Shown: positions 18,660 through 34,958 of the stretch, one piece after another
Layout: each line of letters opens with the position of its first letter
Position numbering within the stretch: position 1 is the stretch's first letter
Source of the DNA: an uncultured Flavobacteriales bacterium
GTDB lineage: Bacteria; Bacteroidota; Bacteroidia; Flavobacteriales_G; NORP312
Length of the DNA: 64,000 nucleotides
Assembly: GCA_905480125.1 (NCBI GenBank)
Contig: CAJQPE010000025.1
Coordinates: forward strand, 3,949-67,948
Reading direction: 5' to 3'
Made by a program: the position numbers and the translations under genes
The notes under the pieces: generated by a model
What the model saw: the letters and a program-made list of their open reading frames with translations, nothing else
Database searches by the model: none
Told to the model about the DNA's origin: nothing

Positions 18660-19547
18660 TCAGTCAAAAGTGACAGTATACTTTACTATCTGAATTGTAC
18701 CTGTAGATTCATCTTTTGTTAGTCGAGCCGAAAGTAACATACGCCCATCATACATAAATTCTCGGGTAGTTTTGTGCGCCCCATCTTCGTACTTTTTTTC
18801 TGATAGTAAATTACCGGCTTCATCATATTTATATTCGTAACGTGTTTCACTTTTACCGAATAAATTATTAATTTCTAACTTTTCAACCGGACGATGATAG
18901 GCATCGTAACTGTATGTTACATTACTCCCTTTCCTGGTCACAACAAGCGTTGACAACTCCTTTTTTTTATTGCCATATTCGTCATATTCTGTTAACTCTT
19001 GCAAGTAGGGTTTATCATCGCTATTATATATTATTCTTTTCGTTTTCTTATCGGAAATCTTAGAATTCTCATAACGCTCTTTATATACTTCGATTAGCTG
19101 CCCCAAAACGAAATTATGAGCTTCAGGATTTGCGTTTACCTCCCTCGAATAAATCATTTTTTCTAAATTATGCATATTATCATACTGATAAGAATAGGAG
19201 TAAAATCCTTTTGAATCAGATAATCTTTTTTTAATTAGATGGTCGCCTGCGTATTTGAATTGCACCAATGATGTATCAATATCAGAACCATTAAAATAGG
19301 TTTCCATCATTCGCTCAACACGGCCATATTTATCGAAATCGAATTGTTGCCATAACGGAGTTTCTATTATCGGCTTCATCTCCCGTTTACTCAAAATAAT
19401 ACTCCGTATTGTTGTTATGCCATTTTTTTTGATGAACTTTTGATTAAAAAAATTATTATCAGAAAACACATCGCAGTTCGAATTATCAAGTATCTGTGCT
19501 TGAACTGTAGAGGCAAATAAATAAAAAATTGCTGCCAATTTGTACAT
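18660..19547 (-). CDS. Hypothetical secreted protein with YD-repeat-like segments
   Basis: Seen: signal peptide MYKLAAIFYLFASTVQAQ; repeated Y.YD..G/H motifs (YSYDAYHRPVEK, YEYKYDEAGNLLSEKKYEDG). Its ATG directly abuts the stop of the upstream gene (19548). No confident family. Confidence 0.75.
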   Translation of the reverse strand: MYKLAAIFYLFASTVQAQILDNSNCDVFSDNNFFNQKFIKKNGITTIRSIILSKREMKPIIETPLWQQFDFDKYGRVERMMETYFNGSDIDTSLVQFKYAGDHLIKKRLSDSKGFYSYSYQYDNMHNLEKMIYSREVNANPEAHNFVLGQLIEVYKERYENSKISDKKTKRIIYNSDDKPYLQELTEYDEYGNKKKELSTLVVTRKGSNVTYSYDAYHRPVEKLEINNLFGKSETRYEYKYDEAGNLLSEKKYEDGAHKTTREFMYDGRMLLSARLTKDESTGTIQIVKYTVTFD

Positions 19548-21674
19548 CTACTTCAACTGTTTAATCGCTTCGCTAATTTCGGTCGTCGGCAACTGACAAG
19601 CCTTGTTCTCACATACGTAAATCATTGTTGCTCCTTTTACAAACTTACCTTCCATTAGTGGTAATTTGCTTTCTTGTGCTGCTCCAAGAATCATTTTATT
19701 AGGATTGTAATATTGGTTCATTTCTACAACTTTATCTGAAGCGCTTTTGCCCGAAATAGCTACCTCATAAAATGGAAAAACTCGATTTAAATAAAGCTGC
19801 GCCCAATTGGAATATCCTGAACCGTAATTAGGAATTTGAGACTGAACATTATTAAGCATCGTTTCACTTTTCGTCAGATAATCTTGATTATCAAGATAAT
19901 GTCCAAGTAGAAATAACCCTTTCGCAATGCTAGAATTAGATCCCGGAATTACGTTATCTCCAACCTCGGTTTTACGAGCAATTAATGCCTTGTCCAAATC
20001 CGAAGTGAAAAAGAACATTCCTGATTTGTCATCATAAAAATGAGTGATAGAATATTGCATTAACTTATCTGCTCGTTGCAACCAAGCCTCATTCAACGTT
20101 GCAGTATACAGATTAATAAAGGCTTCAATCGTGAAGCAATAATCTTCTAAATATCCATTTATTGTTGACCGTCCTTCTTTGTAGTTGTGGTTTAAGCCAT
20201 CGTCTTCTCTTACTTGTTTTGATACTATGAAATTTGCATTTTTTAGTGCCAGATCCAAAAATTTATCATCATCAAAAACATGGTAAGCATCTATCAATCC
20301 ATTCAACATTAATGCGTTCCACGAAGTTAGCGACTTATCATCTAACCCTGGTCGAATTCTAGTGTCTCGAACCGCCATCAATTTCTCTTTACATTGTCCA
20401 GTAAACGCTTTTAATTCCTCCAATGTTAAGTCATTCTTATCAGCGAATTTCTTCTCGTCCTCATCTCTGAGAAGAATGTAATTACCATGTTCCCAAAGAC
20501 CCTTTGTATTTACATTATAGTACTTGGCAAATAAATCAAACTCATTTCCTAAAATGGTTTGTAACTCTTCCTTTTTCCATACATAAAATTTACCTTCTTC
20601 ACCTTCGCTATCAGCATCTAATGAAGAATAAAATGCATATTCTGAAGACATTAATTCTCGTTGAACAAACTCAATTGTTTCGTACACTGTTTCTTTATAA
20701 AGATATTTTTTAGTCTTTTGATATGCTTCTGCATACAAAGAAACGAGTTGACCATTATCGTATAGCATTTTCTCAAAGTGGGGTGCTTTCCACATAATAT
20801 CTGTAGAATATCTAGCAAAGCCGCCACCAATCTGATCATAAATTCCCCCTTGCGCCATTTTATCTAACGTTAGTAAAACATGCTCCATTGTTTTTGGGTC
20901 ATCGACTAAATGGGCATAACGCATTAAGAATTGGTAGTTGTTAGGTATTGGGAATTTAGGTGCTCGATTCGGACCTCCTTGCTTATTATCGAAATTTGTC
21001 GCCCATTTTTCTACCGTATTTGCTAAAGTTGATTTCTCAAATAATGCTGGATCGCTATTTAACGGTAGCATTTCGCTCTGTTGAATTCCTTCAGCTAAAC
21101 GGCTTGCATATTCTTTAATCTTATCAGGATTCGTTTGCCATTCTCCGCTCACTTTATCCAAAATATTCATCCACTGATCTTTGGGGAAATAGGTTCCTCC
21201 AAAAAATGGTTTACCGTCTGCAGTAGCGAAACAATTAAGAGGCCATCCTCCTCGTTGACTCATCAATTGAACAGCATTCATATAGATCTGGTCAATATCT
21301 GGGCGCTCTTCTCTATCTATCTTAATACAAATAAAATTATCGTTCATCCTTTTCGCTACAACCGAGTCTTCAAAAGACTCATGTTCCATAACATGACACC
21401 AATGACAAGCTGCATATCCAATGCTAATCAGTAGTAGTTTGTTCTCTTCTTTTGCTTTTTCTAAAGCCTCGTCTCCCCATGGAAACCAATCTACTGGGTT
21501 ATGAGCGTGTTGCAACAAGTAGGGACTTGTCTCATTTATTAAAGTATTTGTGTGTTCATAACGCGTTGTATCCATTTCAGAAGTGTTAGTGCCAGAATCA
21601 GAGCTCGAAGTGCAAGTCGACATTGACAAAACAACAAACAAAGAAGCTAAAAGGTTAAAATTCATACTGAACAT
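19548..21674 (-). CDS. Thioredoxin-domain protein (DUF255 / YyaL-like) with a six-hairpin glycosidase-like C-terminal domain
   Basis: Seen: [49 protein letters not shown]...[12 protein letters not shown]. Known: diagnostic of the DUF255/SSP411 thioredoxin-like family. N-terminal lipoprotein-like signal (LSMSTC). Confidence 0.9.
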
Positions 21675-21733: not shown

Positions 21734-22294
21734 ATGAGCAAACAACTTAAAAAAAGAACTATAGCGTATAGACAAGCCAAGCATAAGCGAGCAAAGCCTA
21801 AACTCGAAAGTTACCACCTAATGCCTATTGGTCTTTTTGCAGGAATGGGGTCCGTCCTTTTTTTGAGCTCCAAATTATTAGTTCCCAAGTTATTTATAGC
21901 ACAAATCGTGGTAGTTTGCTGCTTATCAGGACTATTGATCCCAATGAAGCTGTACGGCAAATATTTAGGATGGGAGCGAATAGAATCTTTTATTCTTAAT
22001 GTTTTTGGCGTTGGCCCCATAATATGTGCACTATTAATGTGGTGTAATTTCCTTATTTCATCTGAAACAAAATTGGTCAGCTACAAAGTAACTCAAGTTC
22101 AACTAATCACAAATTTAGATGCCTATTTTCAACTCGAATTAGAAGGAAAGGCCATGGATGAATTTCCTGAATTCAGAGAATTTACATTAACAGAAGACAA
22201 TCAACACTATGCAAATGCCAATTTTATCCAATATGAAATATCAACAGGTATTTTAGGTTACGATGTGGTAAAAAATATTGAAGTTTTATTGTAA
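21734..22294 (+). CDS. Hypothetical membrane protein
   Basis: Seen: basic N-terminus, 3-4 hydrophobic helices (MPIGLFAGMGSVLFL, IAQIVVVCCLSGLLI, VFGVGPIICALLMWCNFLI), then a soluble tail of about 75 aa. No family recognised. Confidence 0.65.
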   Translation: MSKQLKKRTIAYRQAKHKRAKPKLESYHLMPIGLFAGMGSVLFLSSKLLVPKLFIAQIVVVCCLSGLLIPMKLYGKYLGWERIESFILNVFGVGPIICALLMWCNFLISSETKLVSYKVTQVQLITNLDAYFQLELEGKAMDEFPEFREFTLTEDNQHYANANFIQYEISTGILGYDVVKNIEVLL

Positions 22295-22793: not shown

Positions 22794-23246
22794 TTAAAAT
22801 ACAATCTCCTCAACAAATTCAATTGGAGCTTTCTTATTCATGCCCAAAGCTTTAGCGAAAATATCGCCCTTTACTTTAACTTTTGCCTTGCCTGTCATTA
22901 ATATCGGAAACAGCAATCCAACTTTTGAAGACAACCCTTCCATGTCAGCTTTTATAATAAATGGGTATATTTCTTGGGTCTTTTTTGTTAAAATAATATT
23001 ATCGTCAAACCTAGCCTTTCCTAATTTGGTTCCGTTTACTATAAAGTCTAAATCAGAATCAAAAATTTTGATGTCGAACCCGTTAGGGTTATTGATGATC
23101 GCTTTTACTTCAATAATGATTGCCGTGGCGGTAAACTCTTTAACCAATATATCTTCAACACCAATAAACTCTACTTCTTTATATATACCGCAAGAATTTA
23201 GGCTAACGCAGATTGCAAATAGTAAAATAAATTTAATGTGCCTCAT
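22794..23246 (-). CDS. LEA_2 / NDR1-HIN1-like lipoprotein
   Basis: Seen: lipobox VSLNSCG, then EFIGVEDILVKEFTATAIIIEVKAIINNPNGFDIKIFDSDLDFIVNGTKLGKARF. Known pattern (recalled): LEA type 2 / water-stress domain lipoproteins. Confidence 0.75.
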   Translation of the reverse strand: MRHIKFILLFAICVSLNSCGIYKEVEFIGVEDILVKEFTATAIIIEVKAIINNPNGFDIKIFDSDLDFIVNGTKLGKARFDDNIILTKKTQEIYPFIIKADMEGLSSKVGLLFPILMTGKAKVKVKGDIFAKALGMNKKAPIEFVEEIVF

Positions 23247-23287: not shown

Positions 23288-24679
23288 TCACTTCGATTTT
23301 ATTTCAGCGTAGTTTTTATAGAATAATGGAATCGTTTCAATCCCTTTCATGTAATTAAAAATTCCATAATGTTCGTTGGGAGAATGAATGTCATCAGAGT
23401 TTAATCCAAAACCAAACAAAATAGATTTTAGGCCTAATTCCTTCTCAAATAAAGCTACAATTGGAATACTGCCGCCGCCTCTTTGGGGAATTGGCTTTTT
23501 ACCATAAGTTGTTTCCATTGCAGCACTTGCCGCTTTATACCCGTCAAAATCGACAGGAATAACAATTGGCTCTCCACCATGATGAGGTGTTACCTTAACT
23601 TTTACAGTATCTGGCGCAATAGACTCGAAATGCTTTTGGAATAGATCTGTAATTTCTTCTGAAGATTGGTATGGCACCAAACGCATCGAAATTTTAGCGT
23701 AAGCCTTAGAGGCCAACACAGTTTTAGCACCTTCACCGATATAACCACCCCAAATGCCGTTTACATCTAATGTAGGGCGAATTGAACATCCCTCTCTTGC
23801 TGAGTATCCAGCCTCTGTATCAACTGCGGTTATGCTCAATCCCTTTTTATAATTTTCTTCACTAAAAGGAGCCAGTGCCATTTCATTTCTATCTGTATCG
23901 CTAACCAACTCAACGTTATCGTAGAATCCTGGAATCGTAATATAGTTGTTTTCATCTTTTAATTCAGAAATCATATCACAAAGGATGTTGATTGGATTCC
24001 CAACAGTGCCACCATAAACTCCAGAATGTAAATCTCTATCAGGACCTGTAACTTCTACCTCTACATAACTCAAACCACGCAAGCCAACACAAATTGAAGG
24101 AGTATCATTTGCGATAATTGATGTGTCTGAAATTAAAATTACGTCCGCCTTTAATTTCTCTTTATTCTCTTTAACGAAAATTCCAAGGTTACTAGAACCA
24201 ACTTCTTCTTCCCCTTCAATCATAAACTTTACGTTACAAGCCAGCGTATCAGTCTGCATCATAGTCTCAAATGCCTTAACGTGCATATACATTTGCCCTT
24301 TATCATCGCAAGCACCACGCGCGAAAATTGCACCATCAGGATGCAATTCCGTTTTTTTAATAACCGGTTCAAATGGTGGCGAATCCCATAATTCAACTGG
24401 GTCAGCAGGTTGGACATCATAATGTCCATAAACTAATACCGTTGGCAAACTGGCATCAAAGAGTTTTTCACCGTAGACAATCGGATGACCTGCAGTTGGG
24501 CATATTTCAACCGAATCAGCACCTGCTTCAATTAAACGCTGCTTAACCACTTCCGAAGTTTTTGCAACATCATTCTTGTATGCAGGGTCTGCACTCACAG
24601 AGGGTATTTTTAGTAACTCGATGAGCTCATTAATGAACTTATCCTTATTCTCTGCGATATAATTGTTTATTCGCTCCAT
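23288..24679 (-). CDS. M20-family dipeptidase
   Basis: Seen: LVYGHYDVQPADP, ARGACDDKGQ, MIEGEEEVGS and a C-terminal HSPNE. Known: M20/M25/M40 metal-binding and catalytic motifs. Confidence 0.9.
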   Translation of the reverse strand: MERINNYIAENKDKFINELIELLKIPSVSADPAYKNDVAKTSEVVKQRLIEAGADSVEICPTAGHPIVYGEKLFDASLPTVLVYGHYDVQPADPVELWDSPPFEPVIKKTELHPDGAIFARGACDDKGQMYMHVKAFETMMQTDTLACNVKFMIEGEEEVGSSNLGIFVKENKEKLKADVILISDTSIIANDTPSICVGLRGLSYVEVEVTGPDRDLHSGVYGGTVGNPINILCDMISELKDENNYITIPGFYDNVELVSDTDRNEMALAPFSEENYKKGLSITAVDTEAGYSAREGCSIRPTLDVNGIWGGYIGEGAKTVLASKAYAKISMRLVPYQSSEEITDLFQKHFESIAPDTVKVKVTPHHGGEPIVIPVDFDGYKAASAAMETTYGKKPIPQRGGGSIPIVALFEKELGLKSILFGFGLNSDDIHSPNEHYGIFNYMKGIETIPLFYKNYAEIKSK

Positions 24680-24855
24680 TATTCTTTCGTTTTAAAGTAA
24701 CCTTTCTTGTATAAAACCGTTTTTCACACATATTCCATAACGGATTTCAAATGTATAATTTTAGACTTATTAAGGAATAATGAAAATGAAAAACAAGCAA
24801 ATAGCATTTCAATAATAAATTTTTGATTTCTATTTTTCTGATTTTCAGTGACTTT

Positions 24856-24882
24856 AAAAATCTTAAATTTGCTAAGATTTTT
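24856..24882 (+). promoter_or_regulatory. Perfect 10-bp inverted repeat enclosing a TAAATTTG -7 box, upstream of the adhesin locus (candidate operator/promoter)
   Basis: Seen: AAAAATCTTA-aatttgc-TAAGATTTTT. The string TAAATTTG (24864-24871) matches TAnnTTTG and spans the left-arm end plus the spacer. It lies 67-93 nt upstream of ATG 24949. The regulatory role is inference. Confidence 0.3.
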
Positions 24883-24948
24883 AACACTTAATAAAATATC
24901 ACAACTGATGGCCCATCGCAAGGTTTATCAACGTATATGTAGAAGTAA

Positions 24949-27678
24949 ATGCTAAATTCAGTTCTAAAATTCACTATTAATGCATTTATTGCTTTAACTT
25001 CACTGATATTTTCTGTTGTAAATTCTTTTGCTCAACCCCTTCAAGTTAATGCCGCTGCGCCTTATAACACTGCTGTTGGAGCAGGAGATGTCTTGTTAGG
25101 TAATGGGGTAACGGCAACCAACTTTACTTTTTATGGAAACCCAATCCAAATGGGATTATTTTTTGACGGAACGAGTTCAATCGGACTAGATAGCGGAATC
25201 GTGCTCTCTTCTGGTGACGTATTAGATTTACCCCTCCCAGGATTCGGCGGGGGAGGTTTTATTAACGCTGGGGCAGCTCCTGGCACTGAAGGATACTGGG
25301 GGACCGCAGATATGGGGGTAGCAGGAAACAATGACCTTTTCAATGTAGCCAATTCTGTACCTGCACTTATTGGGCAAGTATTTGTAGTTGGTAGCGCACA
25401 AGATGCTGCAGTTTTAGAATTTGATTTTGTACCAACCGATGACACTGTTCAGTTTCGATATGTTTTTGGTTCAAATGAATATTTAACATGGATTAATTCT
25501 ATGTTCAACGATGTATTTGGATTTTTCGTTTCTGGACCAGGAATAACAGGACCTTTTACAAGTCCTGCGGGATTTCCTAACGGGTCAATAAATATTGCAA
25601 ATGTACCTGGTTCAGTGCCTCAGCTGCCAATTACAATAAGTTCAGTTCAACCTGCCCTGAACCAACAATATTACATCGATAACCCTATGAATACTGATGT
25701 AGCTATGAATGGATACACAGTAGTTTTAACCGCAACAATGGTTGTTGTTCCTTGCGAAACCTATCATATTCGTTTAGCAATTGCTGATGGTAGTGATTCA
25801 GCTCTAGATTCATGGGTGTTTTTAGAAGCTAATAGCTTTTCTAGTACAGCAATTTCGGTAACTTCAGAACCTTCTTATCCTTCAGGAATCGGAGGAGATA
25901 GCACCTTATTCGAAGGCTGCGGTAGTATTGATATTAACTTTGAACGATTCGATTTCTTGGCCGATACTTTTACAATCAACTATATCCTTACTGGCACTGC
26001 GACTAATGGTGTAGACTTTGCATCCTTGCCTGACAGCATCGTATTCTTGCCGGGACAAAGCATTTACAACTTAACAATAGAAGCATTAGACGATAATCTT
26101 ACAGAAGGGTTTGAAACCATTGAGTTGGAAGTAGATGTCGATATTGCGACCTGTGGGGTTAGTGATAGCAGTAGTAGCATTACCATTTACATTAACGACC
26201 CATACCCAGTTGAGATATTAGTTGAGGATGATACCTTAGATTATCATTTTATATGTGATATTGATTTAGGAGTTCAAGTATTATCGGGGCTGCCTGGATT
26301 CACTTACAATTGGAGCACTGGAGAAACAACCGACACGATAAATGTGAACCCGATTTCTCCGCAACGATATTCTGTAACGGTAACTGATACTTGTGGAGTT
26401 AATTATGCTGTCGACTCTATCTCATTAGTAGTTATCAGAGATCCTGTAGAGGTTATTGCAAAAGACACCTCCGTTAACTGTCCTAATGACCCTGCAAAAA
26501 TTAAACTTTTTCTATCTGGTGGTAATCCACCTTACGATATTGTATGGGATAACGGAGCTACTGACACTACTCAGCAAAACTTATTTGCATTTACTACTAC
26601 AACTTTCCAAATTACAGTTACAGACGAATGTGCGGTAGATACTACAATTGTTAACCCAACAGTATTTGTGCCTGAACCGCCACCACTATTAGCACAATTA
26701 AGCACAGACACCTTAACGGTGACCTGCCCTGGTGAAATGGTTGCTGCTGTTGGCCGAGCAATAGGCGGATTTGGCCAGTATCAAATGACTTGGGATAATT
26801 GGGCTTCGCTCAACACGACTACAATAGTTTATCCAGAAGTAACAACTACTTACTTTTTCGATGTGCAGGATTATTGTCAAGCAACAACAGTAACTGCTCC
26901 ATTCCATGTTATTGTGCCTGACTTTGACAGTCTTACTTTGGATATTTACTATGAAGATCACATGTGTTTGGGTGATTCTGCACAAATTTTAACCTTTATT
27001 CAAGGTGGCGCAAGTCAATACACCTATGAATGGAATAATTTTGCTGGTAATAACGACACAATTATAGTTTCTCCAGTTAATGATGTTACTACCTATTCAA
27101 TTGAGGTAACTGATATGTGTGATAATGTGGTCACCAATGAAGCTGTCATATTCATCGATATGCCAACTGCAGATTATGACTTCCTATTTCAAGGAAGTAA
27201 TCTTGTCGAATTTACCGATAACTCAACAGAAAACGTTGACACATATCTTTATTCCTTCTCAAGTGGAGACAAGATAAGTGAAGCCGATTTTTCATACACC
27301 TTTCATGAGTCTGGATTAGAAAAAGTACAACTATTAGTTACAACAGATTATGGATGCCAAGATTCAATCACAAAGGTATTGATACCTCCTTTCCAGTTAT
27401 GGGTTCCAAATTCATTTTCCCCAAATGAAGACGGGAAAAATGATGTACTTTATGCTGAAGGTATTGGTTTTATTCCCGGCACCTTTAAAATGTGGATTTA
27501 CAACCGTTGGGGTAACCTAATTAAAATTATAGAAGACCCAACACATGGCTGGGACGGTGGCGGAAAAAGTGGTGATGAAATCGGATCATACGTTTACCGG
27601 GTTGAAGTTCAAGGGTACGGCAAAAATGGCTTTATTACAGATTTTGTGTCAATGGGTACCATTACACTAATTAGATAA
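24949..27678 (+). CDS. Surface protein: choice-of-anchor-L head, Calx-beta-like, Cys-bracketed Ig-like repeats, PKD, T9SS type B (gliding-motility CHU_C) sorting domain
   Basis: Seen: signal peptide ...VVNSFAQ. Head: GLDSGIVLSSGD...DAAVLEFDFVPTDDTVQFRYVFGSNEYLTWINSMFNDVFGFFVSGPGI...YHIRLAIADGSDSALDSWVFLEANSF. Calx-beta-like: TGTATNGVDFASLPDSIVFLPGQSIYNLTIEALDD. Repeats end in VTVTDTCG. CTD: LWVPNSFSPNEDGKNDVLY...IYNRWGNLI...WDG...GSYVYRVE. Known: these match the choice-of-anchor L and T9SS type B CTD patterns (recalled). Confidence 0.9.
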   Translation: MLNSVLKFTINAFIALTSLIFSVVNSFAQPLQVNAAAPYNTAVGAGDVLLGNGVTATNFTFYGNPIQMGLFFDGTSSIGLDSGIVLSSGDVLDLPLPGFGGGGFINAGAAPGTEGYWGTADMGVAGNNDLFNVANSVPALIGQVFVVGSAQDAAVLEFDFVPTDDTVQFRYVFGSNEYLTWINSMFNDVFGFFVSGPGITGPFTSPAGFPNGSINIANVPGSVPQLPITISSVQPALNQQYYIDNPMNTDVAMNGYTVVLTATMVVVPCETYHIRLAIADGSDSALDSWVFLEANSFSSTAISVTSEPSYPSGIGGDSTLFEGCGSIDINFERFDFLADTFTINYILTGTATNGVDFASLPDSIVFLPGQSIYNLTIEALDDNLTEGFETIELEVDVDIATCGVSDSSSSITIYINDPYPVEILVEDDTLDYHFICDIDLGVQVLSGLPGFTYNWSTGETTDTINVNPISPQRYSVTVTDTCGVNYAVDSISLVVIRDPVEVIAKDTSVNCPNDPAKIKLFLSGGNPPYDIVWDNGATDTTQQNLFAFTTTTFQITVTDECAVDTTIVNPTVFVPEPPPLLAQLSTDTLTVTCPGEMVAAVGRAIGGFGQYQMTWDNWASLNTTTIVYPEVTTTYFFDVQDYCQATTVTAPFHVIVPDFDSLTLDIYYEDHMCLGDSAQILTFIQGGASQYTYEWNNFAGNNDTIIVSPVNDVTTYSIEVTDMCDNVVTNEAVIFIDMPTADYDFLFQGSNLVEFTDNSTENVDTYLYSFSSGDKISEADFSYTFHESGLEKVQLLVTTDYGCQDSITKVLIPPFQLWVPNSFSPNEDGKNDVLYAEGIGFIPGTFKMWIYNRWGNLIKIIEDPTHGWDGGGKSGDEIGSYVYRVEVQGYGKNGFITDFVSMGTITLIR

Positions 27679-27685
27679 AAAGGTA

Positions 27686-30082
27686 ATGGCGATAGGATTA
27701 CGAATAATTTCATTATTTACTTTAATTCTAGCTGCATCCTATAGCCATTGTCAAATGACAGTATCAAACACCTTTCCTTATAACAACCCCGTATATTTAG
27801 TGGAAGATGTTTTAGTTGGACAAGGCGTTACAATTTCAAATGTTTCTGTAACTGGGCAAAGTGCACAAATCGGATATTTTGATGGAACAAATTCCAATAT
27901 CGGTTTAGATGCGGGAGTTGTTCTTTCCACAGGCGACATTTTCGACATCCCTAACACTGGAAATCCAAATCCAATGCTTGTATCTGGACCAGGCGATCCA
28001 GATTTGTTGACAATTGCCCAATCGGTTGCGTCTAATCCCTCCGCCGTGAATATCAACGCTACTAATGACGCTGCCGTGCTAGAATTTGACTTTGTTCCTA
28101 CTGGAGATACCGTTCGATTTAATTTTGTTTTTGCTTCTAATGAATATACTACCTGGATAAATTCAGTTTACAATGATGCTTTCGGGTTTTTTGTTAGTGG
28201 TCCTGGGTTTATGGGCCCATATATGTCGCCAGCAACATTCCCAAATGGAGCAGAAAACTTAGCTTTTGTTCCTGGAACAACTACTCCTATTACCATCAGT
28301 ACGATCTACAGCGATCCTTTTCAGACTCCACCCACCATGAATGACCAATATTATTTAGACAATGCTAGTGGGTTTAATTTTAATGGATTTACCACGCAAA
28401 TCGAAATAATATTTGCTGTTCAATGTGGTCAAACCTATCATTTCAAATTTGCTGTAGCAGATGGACAGGACGGGGCCTTAGACACTGGCGTATTTTTAGA
28501 AGCTGAGAGTTTTTCATCGGACGACATTGAAATTGCACTATCAACTGGGACAACTTCTCTAGGTTCAGATTCAACAATTGTTGAAGGGTGTACTGAAGCC
28601 ATTTTTACATTTATTAGGGCCGATACAACAGATACTTTGGTAATTCATTTTACATCTAGCGGAAACGCAATAGAGGGATTAGATTTCGACACAATCGGTG
28701 ATAGTTTAGTCTTTTATCCGGGGATAGATTCAATTGCCCTAGTAATAACACCAATAGCTGACGGAATTGCTGAGGGACAAGATACAATCCGATTATCGGT
28801 GTTAAAAATTACTCCCTGCGGGGATTCAGTATACGTTGAGGGAGTCGTTTACATTATGGAAGACTATAATGTTCAAGTCAATACAGATTCTCTATCACTT
28901 AATTGTCCAGGTGATTCAGTCGCCTTGATAGCCGTTGGATCCAGCGGCATACCCGAATTTGCTTACCTATGGGAAACAGGTGAAACCAATGACACCATAT
29001 GGGTAAACCCTACCTTCGGGCAATTTTACACAATTACTGTCACCGATAGTTGCGCAATTTCAACTGTGGTGGATAGCTTTGTAGTCACCGTTCCATATTA
29101 TCAACCCTTACAGGTTTTTGCTGCCGACACGAGTTTAACCTGTCCAGGAGATCAGGTATCTATTTCAGCATTGGTTACTGGTGGTATCTCCGGATATTCT
29201 TACACCTGGAGCCCTTCATCAACTGACACTTCCGTAATAAACGTAAGCCCAAATACGACAACAGACTACACAATAATTGTTACAGACCAATGCAATAATA
29301 TTGAAGACACTGTAATAACTGTTTCCGTTCCAAATCTACAACCACTAGAAGTTTTACCGACTCAATTCGGCACATTAGCTTGTTTAGGAGACGCCTTAGT
29401 TTTAAATGCAGGTACTCAGGGAGGTTCTAGGCACGGTTTAACTTATAACTGGGGTCATGACGGCACCCTTAATGATAGCAGCACAACAGTTATCATTTCG
29501 TCCGATACAGTGTTCACAGTTACTATATCCGATGGTTGTGGAGATTTTGCTGCTGGAGCTTTTAACCCATCAGTTCCTTTGTATAGTTCTGTTGTTGCAA
29601 TAAATCCAATTTACTATTTAATTTGTGAAGGAGATTCATTAGAATTTAACGGCTCTGCATCTGGTGGGGCTGGAACCTACAATTATCTCTGGCGCGGAGA
29701 CGGTTATATCGAAGATGATGAAAACAATAAAACAATAGCGGCTCCCTCTAACGAACTAGGCTTTGCTTTTTCTGCGATAGACCAATGTGGAAATGGAGAT
29801 ACACTTGAAGTAACTATCGAATTTGATGAGTGCGAAGTTATTGCTCCTATTGTCTTCACTCCGAATGGAGATCAATATAACAATCAATTAAAGTTTACCA
29901 ACTTAGAAAAACATCCAAATAGTAGAATTATGATATACAACCGTTGGGGTACAAAAATATATGAATCAGAAAACTACTTAAACAACTGGACTGGAGGAAA
30001 TCAGGGCGATGGAGTTTATTATTATGTACTTTATGTTTCCAATGGTCAAGAACTAAACAGTTATTTCCACATACTTAGATAA
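27686..30082 (+). CDS. Paralogous surface protein: choice-of-anchor-L head, Calx-beta-like, Cys-bracketed repeats, T9SS type B sorting domain
   Basis: Seen: head GLDAGVVLSTGD...DAAVLEFDFVPTGDTVRFNFVFASNEYTTWINSVYNDAFGFFVSGPGF...YHFKFAVADGQDGALDTGVFLEAESF. Calx-beta-like SGNAIEGLDFDTIGDSLVFYPGIDSIALVITPIADG. Repeats CPGD...GG...Y.W...T.Y.I.VTD.C. CTD VIAPIVFTPNGDQYNNQL...IYNRWGTKIY...WTG...GVYYYVL. Starts 7 nt after the previous gene. Confidence 0.9.
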   Translation: MAIGLRIISLFTLILAASYSHCQMTVSNTFPYNNPVYLVEDVLVGQGVTISNVSVTGQSAQIGYFDGTNSNIGLDAGVVLSTGDIFDIPNTGNPNPMLVSGPGDPDLLTIAQSVASNPSAVNINATNDAAVLEFDFVPTGDTVRFNFVFASNEYTTWINSVYNDAFGFFVSGPGFMGPYMSPATFPNGAENLAFVPGTTTPITISTIYSDPFQTPPTMNDQYYLDNASGFNFNGFTTQIEIIFAVQCGQTYHFKFAVADGQDGALDTGVFLEAESFSSDDIEIALSTGTTSLGSDSTIVEGCTEAIFTFIRADTTDTLVIHFTSSGNAIEGLDFDTIGDSLVFYPGIDSIALVITPIADGIAEGQDTIRLSVLKITPCGDSVYVEGVVYIMEDYNVQVNTDSLSLNCPGDSVALIAVGSSGIPEFAYLWETGETNDTIWVNPTFGQFYTITVTDSCAISTVVDSFVVTVPYYQPLQVFAADTSLTCPGDQVSISALVTGGISGYSYTWSPSSTDTSVINVSPNTTTDYTIIVTDQCNNIEDTVITVSVPNLQPLEVLPTQFGTLACLGDALVLNAGTQGGSRHGLTYNWGHDGTLNDSSTTVIISSDTVFTVTISDGCGDFAAGAFNPSVPLYSSVVAINPIYYLICEGDSLEFNGSASGGAGTYNYLWRGDGYIEDDENNKTIAAPSNELGFAFSAIDQCGNGDTLEVTIEFDECEVIAPIVFTPNGDQYNNQLKFTNLEKHPNSRIMIYNRWGTKIYESENYLNNWTGGNQGDGVYYYVLYVSNGQELNSYFHILR

Positions 30083-30122
30083 AAAGAAAAATTTACTTTT
30101 ACGCATATAAAATTTTATAACT

Positions 30123-30515
30123 ATGTTAAAACAGATAATAGTATTTACTTCAATTTCACTTCTCTCATCTTTGGGTTTTTCACAAGAAAAATTTGACCAA
30201 AGATTATTAGAAAAATACAATGTAGAGCAACTCTCTAAAATACAAAGAGAAAATCCTTCTGATTTAGAATTTCTTACTTTTTGTCTAGATAATGCTTTCT
30301 ACATTGCAAAACATGATCCTGCTAAAGACAACAAAGATTTAATAAGAATAAAAATAGCCGATATCGACAACATTAACTTCGCAAGTTTAGGGATAGATTT
30401 ACAAGAAAAAAACTATCAATATTTTTTAATTGAAGGGTTGGATAAACTATTGGTTCTGAGATCTATTGAACACATTAAAAAAGATATGAATATTAAAAAG
30501 GACACGAATAAATGA
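30123..30515 (+). CDS. Small secreted protein (130 aa), unknown function
   Basis: Seen: signal peptide MLKQIIVFTSISLLSSLGFSQ, a helical-looking charged body, and a stop overlapping the next ATG (ATGA at 30512-30515). No family recognised. Confidence 0.7.
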   Translation: MLKQIIVFTSISLLSSLGFSQEKFDQRLLEKYNVEQLSKIQRENPSDLEFLTFCLDNAFYIAKHDPAKDNKDLIRIKIADIDNINFASLGIDLQEKNYQYFLIEGLDKLLVLRSIEHIKKDMNIKKDTNK

Positions 30516-33445
30516 AATATTTATCAGCCCTTATCCTACTCTTTAGCTTTTCGTGTAATGTGATTTATGGTCAAACGACTTTAATGATGAATGGAACTGA
30601 ATATCCTATATCTTCGCCTGTAGATTGTAATAACCTGGGAGCACCCGACAATGTTAATTTCTTTGACATGAGTGGTGGTGGCCCTGGCACGCCATATCTT
30701 AGTAGTGACAGAGATACATTTACAGTTTGTCCTGATTTAGCAGTTGGAAGTAAAATTACTGCTGCATTTTCAACCTCTGCTGGATTTACATGGGATGTGC
30801 ATAGCTCCGACACCTTATATGTTTTTGATGGGGCGAGCGTTTTTGATTCATTAATGGGGAAATACAATAGTAACTCTCATCCAAATGGATTTAATCAAAC
30901 GGCCTCATGGGATAATCCAAATGGTTGTTTAACCTTTATGTTTATAACAAGTAATGTAGATACCGCAGATGGTTGGGAGGCAAATATTTCATGTAGAAAT
31001 CCACAGCAACCATTTGTTGCGCACCTTGAAGGATATAAGAATTTCGATTATGCAGATACATTATACCCTCCTGATAGCGGAATCATTGACATTTGTCTCG
31101 GAGACTCCATTTTGTTTGTTGCTAACCCTGAATTTCCGTATGCTTTAGAAGTTACTGGAACTGGTTATTCTCAAACCACGGCTAACTCAATTATCGAATG
31201 GGAGTTCTCTGATGGTACTTCACAAACTGGAGACAGCGTTTGGTTTACACCTCCTAGTCAACAAGGTTATTTAGCCACCCTTAAAATTACCGATGCATTC
31301 CCCTCCTCAGAATACCTAGTCGGTCTGATTAGAGTCTCCACACAACCTTCGTTTTCAGAAATATTTGCTGAAACTGACTCAATATGTATTGGCGATACTA
31401 CATTTATGTTCGGTGGTGTTACAGCTGCCGATACTGTTGGGGTCTCTGGTACTTCTAGTGCATTCGCAGTCGGTGGTTCCTTTGCTGGAATAACATACCT
31501 GCCAGATGGCAATGGAGTTTCTTACTCAACATCAATAGACATTACGGGATTTATCCCGGGAGATACGGTAAGTCAATCAAGTGATATTTGGCAAATGTGT
31601 GCTACTATGGAACACACTTATTTAGGTGATTTAGAAATGTATTTAGAATGCCCTAACGGAAGTATAATAAACATCTTTGATGGATATAATGGGGTTGGAG
31701 GTTATGGCGGCAATGGATTTGGAGGCGGTGGTACCTTCTTAGGTGATGCTGATGATAATGCGGGAATTGGAATTGGTTGGGAATATTGCTTCTCAACAGA
31801 TAGCGCAGACTGGGGAGATTTCCCAACAGAACATGGCATCAACAATACTCTACCAACAACAATTTCGAATGGAAACGCAATGAACCCAAACGGAATATAC
31901 TTACCTGAACAATCTTTTGCTGATTTAATTGGCTGCCCTGTAAATGGGACATGGACCATATATATTCAAGACAATATAGGCCAAGATGACGGATATATTT
32001 TCGAATGGGGCTTATATTTTAACCCAGTCTTAAACCCATATAGTGGCTCTTATCAACCCCTTATGGTTGCGGATACATGGTTAGCTGATCCAACTATTAT
32101 TTCAGGTCAGAATGATACGGGAATTACTATCTATGGTGCAAGTCAAGGCATTCATCCATATACATATCAAGTACTTGATAATTTTGGCTGTGTTTATGAT
32201 ACAACAATTAATCTTACTGTTGCGCCAACTCCTATTTTAGTGCTAGCAGCATCAGATGATTCGATTCAGTGTATTGGCGATTCGATTGTTCTTTCATTAA
32301 CTGGAAGTAGTGCCGTTGCTCCATACACTTACGATTGGAACACAGGCTATTCTCACCAAAATGATGAGTATATTGTGTATCCTCAAGGTGGAGCTATTCT
32401 AATTGTTACGTTAACTGACTTTTGCGGAACTCCTATTTCTGATTCAATCGAACTATTTTCTCCATATGAGCCACTTCAGTTAACGATGATGGATGATACG
32501 ATTACTTGCCCAAGTGATGGTATTGTTGTGTCTTCATTTCCGTCTGATGGTGCATTACCATTGATATATGAATGGAACACAAATGAAACAACGAACACGA
32601 TAAACGTAACACCGGCTTCTACAACAACCTATACTGTTACCGTGACAGACCAATGTGGCGAAGCTATTATTGGAACAAGTACAATTGAGGTGCCTAATTT
32701 GAGTGCTATGAACATTGCACCTGAAGTTAATGGTGATATAATATGTTCGGGTGATAACAAACAACTTATTGCCAACATTATTAATGGTGCTGGCTTTGGA
32801 TTGACCTACACTTGGAGTAATGACGCATCAATATCAGACTCTAGCATGTTGATAACGATTAATTCAGATACTATTGTATCTGTTTCGGTAACTGATGGAT
32901 GCGGATTTACAGCTAATCATACGTTCTCAATCGCTGTTCCTACATATAACGATGTAACGTTATTTCCTCTGCCAGATTACATAATTTGTGAAGGTGATAC
33001 CGTGGATGCTATTGGAAGTGTAACTGGAGGGACAGGTATTTATACGTTTAAATGGGAAGGAAGTGGTTTAATTAGTAATGCGACTGATTTATCAACGCAA
33101 TTAACACCAACAGACCAATTAGGTTATTCATTGGTTGCCACTGACGAATGTGGATTAAATGCTAGTACAAACATTGAGATACTATTTGATGATTGTTCAG
33201 TTATTGCTCCACTAATTTTCACTCCCAACGGTGACGCATACAACCAACATTTACATTTCTTTAATTTAGAAAAATGGCCCTATAATAACCTAACTATTTA
33301 TGATAGATGGGGACGGAAATTGTATGACTCCAATTACAGAAACGATTGGACTGGTGACGGTCACAATGATGGTGTTTACTATTATGTGCTGACCTTAGCT
33401 GCTGCTGAAGAACCACTAACTGGCTACTTTCATCTAGCTAGATAA
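30512..33445 (+). CDS. Surface protein: CUB-like + PKD-like + proprotein-convertase P-domain-like head, Cys-bracketed repeats, T9SS type B sorting domain
   Basis: Seen: signal peptide ...CNVIYGQ. CUB-like FTVCPD...DTLYVFDGASVFDSLMGKYNS...CLTFMFITSNVDTADGWEANISC. PKD-like IIEWEFSDGTSQTGDSVWFTPPSQQGYLATLKITDA. P-domain-like CATMEHTYLGDLEMYLECPNGSIINIF...CPVNGTWTIYIQDNIGQDDGYIFEWGLYF. CTD VIAPLIFTPNGDAYNQHL...IYDRWGRKLY...WTGDG...GVYYYVL. Domain names come from recalled family patterns, not from a search. Confidence 0.9.
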   Translation: MKYLSALILLFSFSCNVIYGQTTLMMNGTEYPISSPVDCNNLGAPDNVNFFDMSGGGPGTPYLSSDRDTFTVCPDLAVGSKITAAFSTSAGFTWDVHSSDTLYVFDGASVFDSLMGKYNSNSHPNGFNQTASWDNPNGCLTFMFITSNVDTADGWEANISCRNPQQPFVAHLEGYKNFDYADTLYPPDSGIIDICLGDSILFVANPEFPYALEVTGTGYSQTTANSIIEWEFSDGTSQTGDSVWFTPPSQQGYLATLKITDAFPSSEYLVGLIRVSTQPSFSEIFAETDSICIGDTTFMFGGVTAADTVGVSGTSSAFAVGGSFAGITYLPDGNGVSYSTSIDITGFIPGDTVSQSSDIWQMCATMEHTYLGDLEMYLECPNGSIINIFDGYNGVGGYGGNGFGGGGTFLGDADDNAGIGIGWEYCFSTDSADWGDFPTEHGINNTLPTTISNGNAMNPNGIYLPEQSFADLIGCPVNGTWTIYIQDNIGQDDGYIFEWGLYFNPVLNPYSGSYQPLMVADTWLADPTIISGQNDTGITIYGASQGIHPYTYQVLDNFGCVYDTTINLTVAPTPILVLAASDDSIQCIGDSIVLSLTGSSAVAPYTYDWNTGYSHQNDEYIVYPQGGAILIVTLTDFCGTPISDSIELFSPYEPLQLTMMDDTITCPSDGIVVSSFPSDGALPLIYEWNTNETTNTINVTPASTTTYTVTVTDQCGEAIIGTSTIEVPNLSAMNIAPEVNGDIICSGDNKQLIANIINGAGFGLTYTWSNDASISDSSMLITINSDTIVSVSVTDGCGFTANHTFSIAVPTYNDVTLFPLPDYIICEGDTVDAIGSVTGGTGIYTFKWEGSGLISNATDLSTQLTPTDQLGYSLVATDECGLNASTNIEILFDDCSVIAPLIFTPNGDAYNQHLHFFNLEKWPYNNLTIYDRWGRKLYDSNYRNDWTGDGHNDGVYYYVLTLAAAEEPLTGYFHLAR

Positions 33446-34958
33446 GAGATTTTCCCGTCATTTCAGCGGGTTGGTGTACTTCTAAAATACTTAATAATGT
33501 AGGGGCTACATCAGCCAATATTCCATTCTGTATTGACGTATAAGTACTGTCAATCAAAATGCATGGAACGGGGTTTGTACTATGTGCGGTATTTGGAGAA
33601 CCATCAGGGTTAATTACAAAATCGGCATTACCATGGTCGGCAATAATGATAAATGAATAGTCATTTGAAACACCCGATTCAACTACTTTTTGGGCACAAG
33701 AATCGATTGTTTCTACCGCTTTTATGATTGCAGAATAAACTCCTGTATGTCCTACCATATCCGGATTAGCAAAATTGAGACAAACAAAATCGGTTTCTCC
33801 TTTTTCTAACTCCGCTACAATGGTAGCGGTAACTCCTGGGGCGCTCATCTCTGGTTGTAAATCGTAAGTACCCACCTTAGGCGAGCTTACCATCAATCGT
33901 TTTTCGCCCGTAAATTCTTCTTCTCTACCTCCCGAAAAGAAAAAAGTAACGTGCGGGTACTTTTCAGTTTCAGCAATTCTTATTTGATTTTTACCTGCGT
34001 TTTGCAACACTTCGCCTATCGTCATTTTGAGGTTGTCTTTCTCAAATAGCACATTTACATTCTTATACGATCTATCGTAATTAGTCATGGTAACATAATG
34101 CAAAGGAATGGCACGCATACCCTGGTCAGGGAAGTCCTGCTGTGTAAGCGCCATTGTAATTTCTCGGCAACGGTCGGTTCTATAATTAAAACAAACAACC
34201 ACGTCGTTTTCTTCAATTCTACCAATAGCATTACCCCTTGCATCAACCTTAACAACGGGTTCTACAAACTCATCTGTTACGTTATTCTCATAAGAAGCAT
34301 GCATTGCATCTACCAAATTGGTAGAACGTTGGCCTACTCCATTTACTAGTAAATCGTACCCTCTTTTAACACGCTCCCATCGTTTATCACGATCCATAGC
34401 GTAGTAACGACCAATTACCGAAACCAACTCTAAAGATGTACCTGCAATATGCTGTTCTAGCCTTCTTAGAAAACCCAATCCACTTTTAGGGTCGCAATCT
34501 CTACCATCTGTAAAGGCATGTATAAACACCTTTTCCACACCGTGTTGATTAGCAATATCGCATAAGGCATGCAAATGTTCTTGCGATGAATGTACGCCTC
34601 CGTTAGATACTAATCCAAAATAATGCAACGCTCTACCAGTGATCTTCGCCTTATTAATTGCTTCCATCAAAACTGGATTTTGATGAAGTTCTTTACTCTC
34701 TAATGCCCGGTTAATCTTCAATAAATCTTGATAAACAATTCTACCAGCACCAATATTTAAATGCCCTACTTCAGAATTGCCCATCTGTCCTTTTGGCAAT
34801 CCTACATTCTCCCCATCAGTTAGCAATTCACAATGTGGGTGCTTTTCGTACAGGCTATCTATAAATGGAGTATTGGCGTTGAATATCGCGTCAGATTTAG
34901 TTTTATCACCGTGGCCCCAGCCATCTAGAATCATCAACACTGCTTTTTTACTACTCAT
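33438..34958 (-). CDS. gpmI: 2,3-bisphosphoglycerate-independent phosphoglycerate mutase
   Basis: Seen: LMILDGWGHG, QMGNSEVGHLNIGAGR, GLVSNGGVHS, IIADHGNAD; 506 aa. Known: iPGM signatures. Confidence 0.95.
   Translation of the reverse strand: MSSKKAVLMILDGWGHGDKTKSDAIFNANTPFIDSLYEKHPHCELLTDGENVGLPKGQMGNSEVGHLNIGAGRIVYQDLLKINRALESKELHQNPVLMEAINKAKITGRALHYFGLVSNGGVHSSQEHLHALCDIANQHGVEKVFIHAFTDGRDCDPKSGLGFLRRLEQHIAGTSLELVSVIGRYYAMDRDKRWERVKRGYDLLVNGVGQRSTNLVDAMHASYENNVTDEFVEPVVKVDARGNAIGRIEENDVVVCFNYRTDRCREITMALTQQDFPDQGMRAIPLHYVTMTNYDRSYKNVNVLFEKDNLKMTIGEVLQNAGKNQIRIAETEKYPHVTFFFSGGREEEFTGEKRLMVSSPKVGTYDLQPEMSAPGVTATIVAELEKGETDFVCLNFANPDMVGHTGVYSAIIKAVETIDSCAQKVVESGVSNDYSFIIIADHGNADFVINPDGSPNTAHSTNPVPCILIDSTYTSIQNGILADVAPTLLSILEVHQPAEMTGKSLI

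Follow-up and report, generated by a model that had tools for sequence, protein, structure and literature searches.

Introduction

The type B cargo proteins of the T9SS studied to date are kept on the cell surface by PorP-like proteins (PMC9143113). A neighbouring gene of the PorP/SprF family, usually directly downstream, is typical of such cargo and not defining. In F. johnsoniae, three of the 12 type B substrates are orphans, without an adjacent porP/sprF-like gene (PMC12618676). The orphans (Fjoh_1123, Fjoh_1720, Fjoh_4934) employ the distal SprF-like shuttle Fjoh_1677, and orphan substrates whose CTDs are more than 44% identical share one distal shuttle (PMC12618676). The pairing of type B cargo with shuttles and the shuttle of the orphan cargo were published in 2025, and recognition and sorting are still being worked out. 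Among the relatives of this protein class, only the grappling-hook protein GhpA from Aureispira sp. CCB-QB1 has a solved structure (PDB 9flp; bioRxiv 10.1101/2024.01.29.577165). It carries a binding head at the distal end of a stem, which is built of Ig-like domains linked by disulfides.

In this study, we analysed a locus of four genes (A, B, S and C) in a 64 kb window, that is, the whole stretch of DNA under analysis. We believe that the locus is probably a lineage-specific version of a conserved type B cargo array in an uncultured marine Flavobacteriales bacterium, marked by export through Sec and the T9SS, by distal shuttles, by the joining of an S-C module and by exchange between B and C.

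Results

ORF calling placed all four genes on the plus strand (Table 1). The gap is 7 nt between A and B and 40 nt between B and S, and the stop codon of S overlaps the start codon of C as ATGA. The frames, strand and spacing given in the initial annotation were all reproduced, and the flanks that it named, an M20 peptidase gene and gpmI, were confirmed. gpmI is convergent with C, and the two gene ends overlap by 8 nt. The locus was 99.9-100% identical across six assemblies. TAAATTTG is a candidate promoter for the whole A-B-S-C unit. It is the sole intergenic match to TAnnTTTG in 24601-33445; the motif occurred six times in total against 5.3 expected, so it points only weakly to a promoter. 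Scans for sigma-70 promoters and terminators gave counts below the shuffled expectation, and that for sigma-70 was uninformative.

Table 1. Coordinates of the genes, domains and candidate promoter of the locus (nucleotide positions in the 64 kb window).
Feature	Position (nt)	Strand	Length (aa)	Description
M20 peptidase	23288..24679	-		upstream boundary of the array; flank conserved in related genomes
TAAATTTG	24864..24871	+		candidate promoter motif; fits Bacteroidota -7 consensus TAnnTTTG; ~78 nt 5' of A start
Gene A	24949..27678	+	909	
A domains				choice-of-anchor L aa 47-297; Calx-beta-like aa 322-397; PKD-like aa 754-808
A repeats and CTD	26155-27120 (repeats)			four Ig-like repeats aa 403-724; class 1 type B CTD aa 819-909
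Gene B	27686..30082	+	798	
B domains				choice-of-anchor L aa 39-276; Calx-beta-like aa 297-372
B repeats and CTD	28820-29788 (repeats)			four Ig-like repeats aa 379-701; class 2 type B CTD aa 721-798
Gene S	30123..30515	+	130	
S domains				Sec signal peptide GFS/Q, then ~110-aa alpha/beta domain without known family or fold
Gene C	30512..33445	+	977	
C head				aa 1-560; CUB-like ~aa 39-161; PKD/Ig-like ~aa 195-280; P-domain ~aa 340-505; boundaries approximate
C repeats and CTD	32192-33151 (repeats)			four Ig-like repeats aa 561-880; class 2 type B CTD aa 900-977
gpmI	33438..34958	-		2,3-bisphosphoglycerate-independent phosphoglycerate mutase; downstream boundary; conserved array anchor in other Bacteroidota

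All three large proteins end in a type B CTD, as had been read from the sequence. Pfam CHU_C (PF13585) matched A with 45.9 bits (aa 819-895), B with 65.0 bits (aa 721-789) and C with 57.8 bits (aa 900-974) at a cut-off of 27. TIGR04131 gave 38.7, 43.6 and 34.6 bits, respectively, which leaves C 0.4 bits short of the cut-off of 35. These HMM matches support A, B and C as T9SS type B cargo, and public databases label them "T9SS type B sorting domain-containing" or "gliding motility-associated" proteins. The signal peptide ends read from the sequence were SFA/Q (A), SHC/Q (B), GFS/Q (S) and IYG/Q (C). By eye, the n-region is basic and the core hydrophobic in the peptides of A, B and C, and Q comes right after a small-x-small site. 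According to the Q-rule of Bacteroidetes, glutamine stands right after the signal peptide cleavage site (PMC5837995). All four products are likely to be exported by Sec. No core T9SS genes were found within the 64 kb window; a cargo protein with a type A CTD is encoded in it (10641-14321), which indirectly supports the presence of a T9SS in the organism.

The CTDs fall into two classes, class 1 in A and class 2 in B and C. The CTD of A is 24-30% identical to those of B and C, whereas B and C are 54.5% identical to each other. From the two classes we infer that two or more distal shuttles exist, of which one would serve A and another both B and C. The initial annotation had described one shared stalk and export tag carrying swapped heads in all three proteins. 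This is right for B and C, in which stalk and CTD are colinear and the heads differ, but not for A, which has the other CTD class and an extra PKD domain.

Gene S had been left uninterpreted, although its linkage to C is the most conserved in the locus. No Pfam or NCBIfam model matched the S family, and no homology of S to characterised proteins was detected. A single-sequence search returned only relatives with at least 72% identity, as if S were an orphan gene; this reading was overturned by a profile search and a full phmmer search, by which the S family was found. Q21 was invariant in 69 S homologues. Of the 70 metagenome loci, which were retrieved with the C-head alignment, 69 had an S homologue directly upstream of the C-head homologue (median gap 13 nt); the S alignment has no conserved stretch. 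The same adjacency was seen in all nine look-ups. One locus (L099) has a C homologue without S, and tandem S-C, S-C duplications occur. S is a conserved, uncharacterised partner gene of the C family. The S-C linkage is the one new point of the locus, which apart from it is largely ordinary and matches the existing automatic annotation. Weak sub-threshold matches of the S family to the NCBIfam models LolA3_fam (5/69) and T9SS_sortase_N (4/69) are confined to a minority of members and include the signal peptide. A toxin-immunity or enzyme-inhibitor reading of S-C was rejected, as C has no catalytic or toxin fold.

What S does can be outlined only tentatively. It may work in the periplasm, as a chaperone or adaptor from which a shared shuttle receives the cargo, or it may be a subunit exported alongside. 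We see some chance, although well short of an even one, that S represents a new family of small Sec-exported proteins and the obligate partner of a widespread CUB/PKD/P-domain orphan type B cargo and that, separately, the two CTD classes mark two dedicated distal shuttles. If true, S would be a new class of accessory component for type B secretion. Relatives in culture that allow S to be tested include Vicingus serpentipes and Fluviicola.

The initial annotation noted that no PorP/SprF gene adjoins the locus, and this extends to the whole window, where PorP_SprF (PF11751 / TIGR03519) matched none of the ORFs of at least 120 aa. Adjacent PorP/SprF genes were also absent, at a limited sensitivity of detection, from the choice-of-anchor-L arrays and C-family loci examined. 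Near C homologues, none was detected within 5-10 kb, bar an unrelated pair in two loci (L088 and L091). A small CHU_C and PorP pair near the Vicingus S-C module was considered as serving the C homologue there; the CTD identity of 33-37% gave no support. Together with the near-universal S-C adjacency and the weak T9SS_sortase_N and LolA3 matches, this absence could suggest that S functionally replaces an adjacent PorP/SprF, as a dedicated secretion or anchoring adaptor of the C family on an unconventional type B route. We consider such a replacement unlikely. S did not match the PorP/SprF models and is predicted to be a small soluble alpha/beta protein and not an outer-membrane beta-barrel, its HMM matches are mutually inconsistent, and C shares its CTD class with B, for which there is no separate S. 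The sensitivity with which PorP could be detected outside the window is also limited, and the F. johnsoniae orphans require only a distal SprF-like shuttle (PMC12618676). The initial annotation held that the partner of A-C must be encoded elsewhere or be unconventional; a distal shuttle has this published precedent, so no unconventional partner is needed.

A and B are full-length paralogues (37% identity over 792 aa, E 8e-137). Choice-of-anchor L (NF038133) scored 207.3 bits in A and 209.2 bits in B (cut-off 27; E ~1e-61) and had no match in C. Calx-beta (PF03160) reached 26.6 (A) and 25.3 (B) bits, just below the 27-bit cut-off, and phmmer matched the Calx-beta-like region to Na/Ca-exchanger CBD structures (E 0.0019). 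This agrees with the choice-of-anchor-L-like and Calx-beta-like heads previously proposed for A and B. A profile search gave no PDB relative of choice-of-anchor L, and no mention of it was found in the literature.

Of the CUB-like, PKD-like and P-domain-like head proposed for C, the P-domain was supported by HMM and predicted fold and the other two by predicted fold. P_proprotein (PF01483) matched C with 33.8 bits (cut-off 21) over a partial stretch (aa 471-502), and in C orthologues a match to the N-terminal part of the model lies at ~aa 360-390. The predicted structure of the C head (pLDDT 83.5) gave Foldseek matches to the P-domain of furin (5jmo), and no subtilisin catalytic domain is attached to that of C. 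CUB had no Pfam match in C. The predicted fold matched the CUB domains of neuropilin, TSG-6, Kremen and PCPE-1 with a Foldseek probability of 1.0 (TM 0.62-0.66, rmsd ~3 A over ~115 columns), and the predicted PKD matched that of ColG (TM 0.83). The CUB and PKD assignments are thus predictions supported at fold level only.

The stalks consist of Cys-bracketed repeats of ~80 aa, as described before, of which A, B and C have four complete copies each and not up to five. C has an extra degenerate partial unit just upstream of its four repeats. The C, W, D and C residues were invariant over the 12 units. The repeat profile matched Ig-like phage decoration proteins (8zvi, E 9.4e-5). The SprB repeat model (PF13573) scored 19.7-21.9 bits, all under the cut-off of 28; against single units, it matched five of the 12 weakly (best E 1.3e-4). 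The stalk units are Ig-like and SprB-repeat-like, with scores below the cut-off for membership of the SprB repeats. The C-family profile matched the Ig-like stem repeats and the C-terminal T9SS domain of GhpA (E 3.9e-100, 17 stretches); the window's own stalk repeats and single sequences had no match to GhpA.

Choice-of-anchor L has no assigned function, so the word "adhesin" for A-C is a guess from architecture. A-C may instead be soluble and released from the cell, as binding proteins or as enzymes that process, for example, polysaccharides or particles. Modules of the CUB, PKD, P-domain and Calx-beta types are common in carbohydrate-active and proteolytic enzymes, and CBM-containing glycosidases were among the Foldseek matches of the C head. 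However, no catalytic domain was found in C by Pfam, NCBIfam or fold search, proteins displayed on the surface, SprB and GhpA among them, typically have a stalk of Ig-like repeats, and the surface retention of known type B cargo by PorP-like proteins (PMC9143113) argues in the same direction. We therefore regard released proteins as improbable and cell-anchored adhesins as the preferred reading.

Tandem arrays of 1-4 choice-of-anchor-L/type B genes beside gpmI occurred in at least seven other Bacteroidota genomes. All ten ORFs tested in these arrays carried choice_anch_L and TIGR04131, and their CTDs fell into two conserved classes. The synteny loci came from a contig search with gpmI, in which the best identity among the matches listed was 65%. 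Empty gpmI-M20 sites were also found (L009, L023 and L062).

The C-terminal ~350 aa of B and C had been described as colinear paralogues, and pairwise alignment gave 303 bits and 41% identity across the final 398 aa (E 1e-101). Among 115 C-head-type proteins, the highest score against the C tail was ~105 bits, in partial stretches, so that B is threefold better. Hundreds of orthologues share ~50% identity with the head of C. Over the last 417 aa, however, C has no more than 29% identity to the tails of long-form orthologues, as against 43% to B. B and C formed an exclusive clade among the long forms in 96 of 100 bootstraps, the repeats pair one to one (B1-4 with C1-4), and the same B/C CTD similarity is present in a relative (L087). 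Since the stalk and CTD of B and C are mutually closest, the module exchange behind the shared tail is real. Shared ancestry in a common CTD/stalk class, or independent genes merely juxtaposed, would fit the wide occurrence of class 2 CTDs and the C-family orthologue CTDs that are 50-59% identical to that of B (e.g., P0014, 58.7%), but is very improbable against the bit scores, the clade, the repeat pairing and the recurrence in the relative.

Discussion

Based on sequence and predicted folds, we propose the following model. Sec would export A, B, C and S. After folding in the periplasm, each of A-C would consist of a binding head, four Ig-like domains bracketed by disulfides as a stalk, and the type B CTD, by means of which they would pass the T9SS translocon. 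Shuttle or anchor proteins of the PorP/SprF family, with genes elsewhere in the genome, may then collect A-C and keep them at the cell surface, heads facing outward. The A/B pair would be the ancestral content of the gpmI-M20 site, which the two-gene S-C module may have joined in the present lineage. Stalk and CTD, encoded by the 3' halves of B and C, would then have been exchanged or homogenised, which would place C at the export address of B. S would be transcribed together with C, and the translation of the two is probably coupled. The most likely role of S is that of a chaperone, an adaptor or a subunit, working on C or along with it, either in the periplasm or at the cell surface. Secretion, surface anchoring, adhesion, shuttle sharing and the role of S are what we infer in this model. 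Surface proteins of this kind probably enable marine Flavobacteriales to attach to particles or algae. The natural "tail swapping", with a conserved head on the stalk and CTD of a neighbour, could help to map the parts of the CTD that specify the shuttle, and the syntenic array with two CTD classes across genomes is a ready comparative set for predicting shuttles.

Compared with known systems, A and B have the order of elements that defines the choice-of-anchor L family (NF038133 / PF26766), the domain followed by a C-terminal sorting signal. To our knowledge, tandem arrays with two CTD classes beside gpmI have not been described for this family. GhpA is a protein of 5898 aa that forms heptamers, with the PorP/PorE homologues ghpB/C downstream, unlike A-C. 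SprB/SprF, encoded in the sprCDBF operon of F. johnsoniae, resembles the A-C locus in its Ig-like Cys-containing repeats, in its type B CTD and in having accessory genes in the operon. However, SprB is a gliding adhesin of ~6500 aa that is propelled along the cell, with sprF immediately downstream, whereas A-C have no such gene adjacent. At 800-980 aa, A-C were overstated as "giant" in the initial annotation, and unlike SprB they have distinct globular heads and PF13573 matches that are weak and all below the cut-off. The orphans of F. johnsoniae, like A-C, have a type B CTD and no adjoining porP/sprF-like gene. Their heads are unlike those of A-C, which in addition are clustered in a syntenic array; the CTDs of A-C are of two classes, and C has a dedicated small partner gene upstream. 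The shuttle of the orphans has been identified (Fjoh_1677), whereas that of A-C is presumed. The CTDs of these orphans are more than 44% identical, and at 54.5% identity B and C would be expected to share one distal shuttle.

Locus organisation

Four plus-strand ORFs were found at exactly the positions given by the initial annotation. They encode three large T9SS type B cargo proteins (A, B and C) and, between B and C, a 130-aa protein (S). A and B are separated by 7 nt and B and S by 40 nt, while S and C share an ATGA stop/start overlap. The flanking M20 peptidase and gpmI genes were also as described, and the 3' ends of gpmI and C overlap by 8 nt. Public databases label A-C "T9SS type B sorting domain-containing" or "gliding motility-associated-like". 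The 8.5-kb region 24949-33445 was recovered at 99.9-100% DNA identity in six independent marine metagenome assemblies (L001-L006) from different projects (ENA, JGI, Logan and SOLA). The locus is therefore no assembly artefact, and this near-identity points to a marine population that is widespread and nearly clonal. One TAnnTTTG motif lies 78 nt 5' of A, the motif being no more frequent than expected by chance, and a sigma-70 promoter scan was uninformative. Judging from the spacing and this motif, a single A-B-S-C transcription unit is plausible.

Elsewhere in the window, a BamG-family BAM accessory protein gene (NF053685, 329 bits) is followed by a gene whose product has a single weak TPR_14 match. 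Both adjoin LptC-like and SurA/PpiD-like genes in an outer-membrane biogenesis cluster.

Positions of the features discussed, in the window and in the loci compared with it
Feature	Source	Position	Strand	Length
M20 peptidase	window	23288-24679	-	
A	window	24949-27678	+	909 aa
B	window	27686-30082	+	798 aa
S	window	30123-30515	+	130 aa
C	window	30512-33445	+	977 aa
gpmI	window	33438-34958	-	
SprB-repeat protein	window	10641-14321	+	1226 aa
Methyltransferase	window	17572-18657		
RHS-repeat protein	window	18660-19547	-	295 aa
DsbH-type thioredoxin protein	window	19548-21674	-	708 aa
ORF	window	21734-22294		
ORF	window	22794-23246		
BamG-family protein	window	45792-47120	+	
TPR_14 protein	window	47141-48478	+	
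M20-A-B-S-C-gpmI	L087	4408-12900		
Second S and C-head homologues	L113	8581-9771		
Second S and C-head homologues	L120	7396-9627		
Type B CTD protein with PorP_SprF gene	L088	14750-16524		
Type B CTD protein with PorP_SprF gene	L091	13166-14943		
DUF5723 (PF18990)	L089	13509-15041		
DUF5723 (PF18990)	L090	11988-13361		
DUF5723 (PF18990)	L096	11870-13333		
Class 2 CTD matching TIGR04183	L024	3306-5534		
Class 2 CTD matching TIGR04183	L011	11534-13165		
Class 2 CTD matching TIGR04183	L011	13365-15572		

Domain architecture

The N-terminal heads of A and B contain choice-of-anchor L (NF038133; 207 and 209 bits, cut-off 27), a domain for which the literature search found no paper mentioning it. 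Their Calx-beta-like domains scored slightly below the 27-bit cut-off (26.6 and 25.3 bits) and were matched by Na/Ca-exchanger CBD structures (E 0.0019); A also had a sub-threshold PKD_4 match. The head of C had been called CUB-like, PKD-like and P-domain-like. This description was right at the fold level, since an AlphaFold2 model of aa 1-560 (67-sequence alignment, pLDDT 83.5) matched isolated CUB domains (TSG-6, Kremen, PCPE-1 and neuropilin a1; TM 0.62-0.66, rmsd ~3 A), the ColG PKD domain (TM 0.83) and the furin P-domain. The model also matched the neuropilin a2b1b2 fold (E 7e-9), P_proprotein reached 33.8 bits (cut-off 21), and no catalytic fold was among the fold matches of this head model. 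The C-terminal sorting domain (CTD) assigned to all three proteins exceeded both the Pfam and the NCBIfam cut-offs in A and B; in C it passed Pfam CHU_C (57.8 bits, cut-off 27) and fell 0.4 bits short of TIGR04131 (34.6 bits, cut-off 35).

Each stalk consists of four Cys-bracketed repeats of ~80 aa; C, W, D and C do not vary among the 12 units, and a degenerate fifth unit lies directly upstream of the four in C. The unit profile matched Ig-like phage decoration proteins (8zvi, E 9.4e-5), and five of the 12 units weakly matched the SprB repeat, below its cut-off. A 1226-aa protein encoded 10 kb upstream carries six canonical SprB repeats (PF13573, E 3e-45) and, at aa 1150-1224, a CTD of type A (Por_Secre_tail), not of type B; the SprB-repeat class thus also occurs together with the alternative T9SS sorting signal. 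The predicted signal peptides of A, B, S and C (SFA/Q, SHC/Q, GFS/Q and IYG/Q) are all followed directly by glutamine, the Bacteroidetes Q-rule of signal peptidase I substrates (PMC5837995).

Paralogy of A, B and C

A and B are paralogous along their full length (37% identity over 792 aa; heads 48%), whereas the similarity of B and C is limited to the last ~400 aa (41%, E 1e-101), where their repeats pair one to one. Over the last 100 aa, CTD identity was 54.5% for B-C, 30% for A-B and 24% for A-C. The proposal of a shared stalk with swapped heads holds for B and C and not for A. The C-head family is large and well conserved (at least 492 homologues; 120 listed at 44-60% identity). The tail of C (stalk plus CTD) shares no more than 29% identity with those of long-form head-orthologues and 43% with B; by BLAST it scored 303 bits against B and ~105 bits against the best of 115 orthologues, and 96 of 100 NJ bootstraps joined B and C in a clade of their own. 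Because the tail of C is far closer to B than to the tails of its head-orthologues, B and C must have had their 3' halves exchanged or homogenised within the window's lineage. The exchange is older than the split from L087 (GCA_038142565.1), the nearest available relative, in which the CTDs of the B-like and C-like proteins share 54-57% identity with those of the window's C and B.

L087 has the gene order of the window. Every large gene there, plus many neighbours, is broken into several ORFs, probably through assembly frameshifts and not as pseudogenes. The RHS-repeat and DsbH-type genes, which stand between the methyltransferase and M20 genes in the window, and two further ORFs are missing from its syntenic region.

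The S-C gene pair

S is not an orphan gene, as profile and phmmer searches showed. Genes of 118-136 aa, 28-39% identical to S, lie directly before the C homologues of Vicingus serpentipes, two Fluviicola-like genomes and Tara Oceans contigs. The profile search gave 92 family members and full phmmer 200 representative clusters (E of 1e-3 or better); no Pfam or NCBIfam family covers these homologues, all of which are named "hypothetical". Even an S homologue at 24% identity has a C-head homologue (35% identical) next downstream. Of 70 metagenome loci in which a C-head homologue has 450 nt or more of sequence upstream of it, 69 had an S homologue immediately upstream in the same orientation (median gap 13 nt); the sole exception (L099) is genuinely without S. 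The pair duplicates as a unit, since L113 and L120 carry tandem S-C, S-C. A choice-of-anchor-L gene was near a C-head homologue in only one of 80 metagenome loci, so the co-occurrence of A/B and S-C is specific to the window's lineage and L087.

The confidently predicted structure of S is a small alpha/beta domain (pLDDT 85.9) with no PDB relative by fold or sequence. A few family members weakly matched, below threshold, LolA3_fam and the N-terminal domain of long-form PorU. In the Fluviicola-like genomes, S-C is followed in conserved order by gapA and a gene for a DUF5723 protein of 457-510 aa.

Absence of an adjacent PorP/SprF gene

The initial annotation had noted no neighbouring gene for PorP/SprF, the usual outer-membrane partner, and PorP_SprF indeed matched none of the ORFs of 120 aa or more across the whole 64 kb. 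Outside the window, where detection used a single seed plus a motif and had limited sensitivity, none was detected within 5-10 kb of C homologues except in L088 and L091. In these Vicingus-like loci, a type B CTD protein of 278 aa, accompanied by its own PorP_SprF gene, is encoded ~2 kb from S-C, beyond an opposite-strand Pif1 helicase gene; its CTD shares only 33-37% identity with the CTD of the local C homologue. Orphan type B cargo is already published: in F. johnsoniae, three "orphans" among 12 type B substrates have the distal SprF-like protein Fjoh_1677 as their common shuttle, identity among their CTDs exceeds 44%, and crosstalk was seen between CTDs >50% identical (PMC12618676). Since such substrates are published and the absence is family-wide, the PorP/SprF-free window is not anomalous.

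Tandem arrays of 1-4 genes convergent on gpmI were found in seven further loci (L008, L011, L013, L014, L024, L076 and L080), amid housekeeping genes. Their far side is an M20 peptidase gene in L024 and L076, as in the window; in L009, L023 and L062, gpmI directly adjoins M20. All ten array ORFs scanned had choice-of-anchor L and TIGR04131, and none was a PorP. Their CTDs fall into two conserved classes. Class 1 belongs to the long, M20-proximal proteins (mutual identity 59-85%); A is 35-43% identical to it and has its signature. Class 2 belongs to the gpmI-proximal proteins (51-59%); with L076_2 and L024_2, B and C share 38-44% identity, and with L011_3 and L011_4 they share 30-35%. Applying to these two classes the logic published for the pairing of CTDs with shuttles, we infer two distal shuttles, one of which would be common to B and C.

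The type A model TIGR04183 weakly matched several class 2 CTDs at the same residues (22-28 bits, cut-off 23), which hints that CTDs of types A and B are distantly related.

Proposed mechanism and relation to known systems

To our knowledge, the conserved choice-of-anchor-L arrays that are anchored on gpmI and have CTDs of two classes, the B/C tail exchange and the S-C gene pair have not been described. The S-C pair is the sole element of the locus that could open something mechanistically new. We propose that the cargo would be exported by Sec, would fold and form disulfides in the periplasm, and would pass the T9SS in dependence on the CTD. Distal PorP/SprF-like shuttles would then capture it, so that two kinds of binding head would be displayed at the surface on short Ig-like stalks, and S would act with C. 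Beyond the domain architecture, every step is modelled on characterised systems, namely SprB/SprF, the orphan substrates, PorP anchorage and GhpA. The only solved relative is GhpA, which the C-family profile matches at E 3.9e-100.
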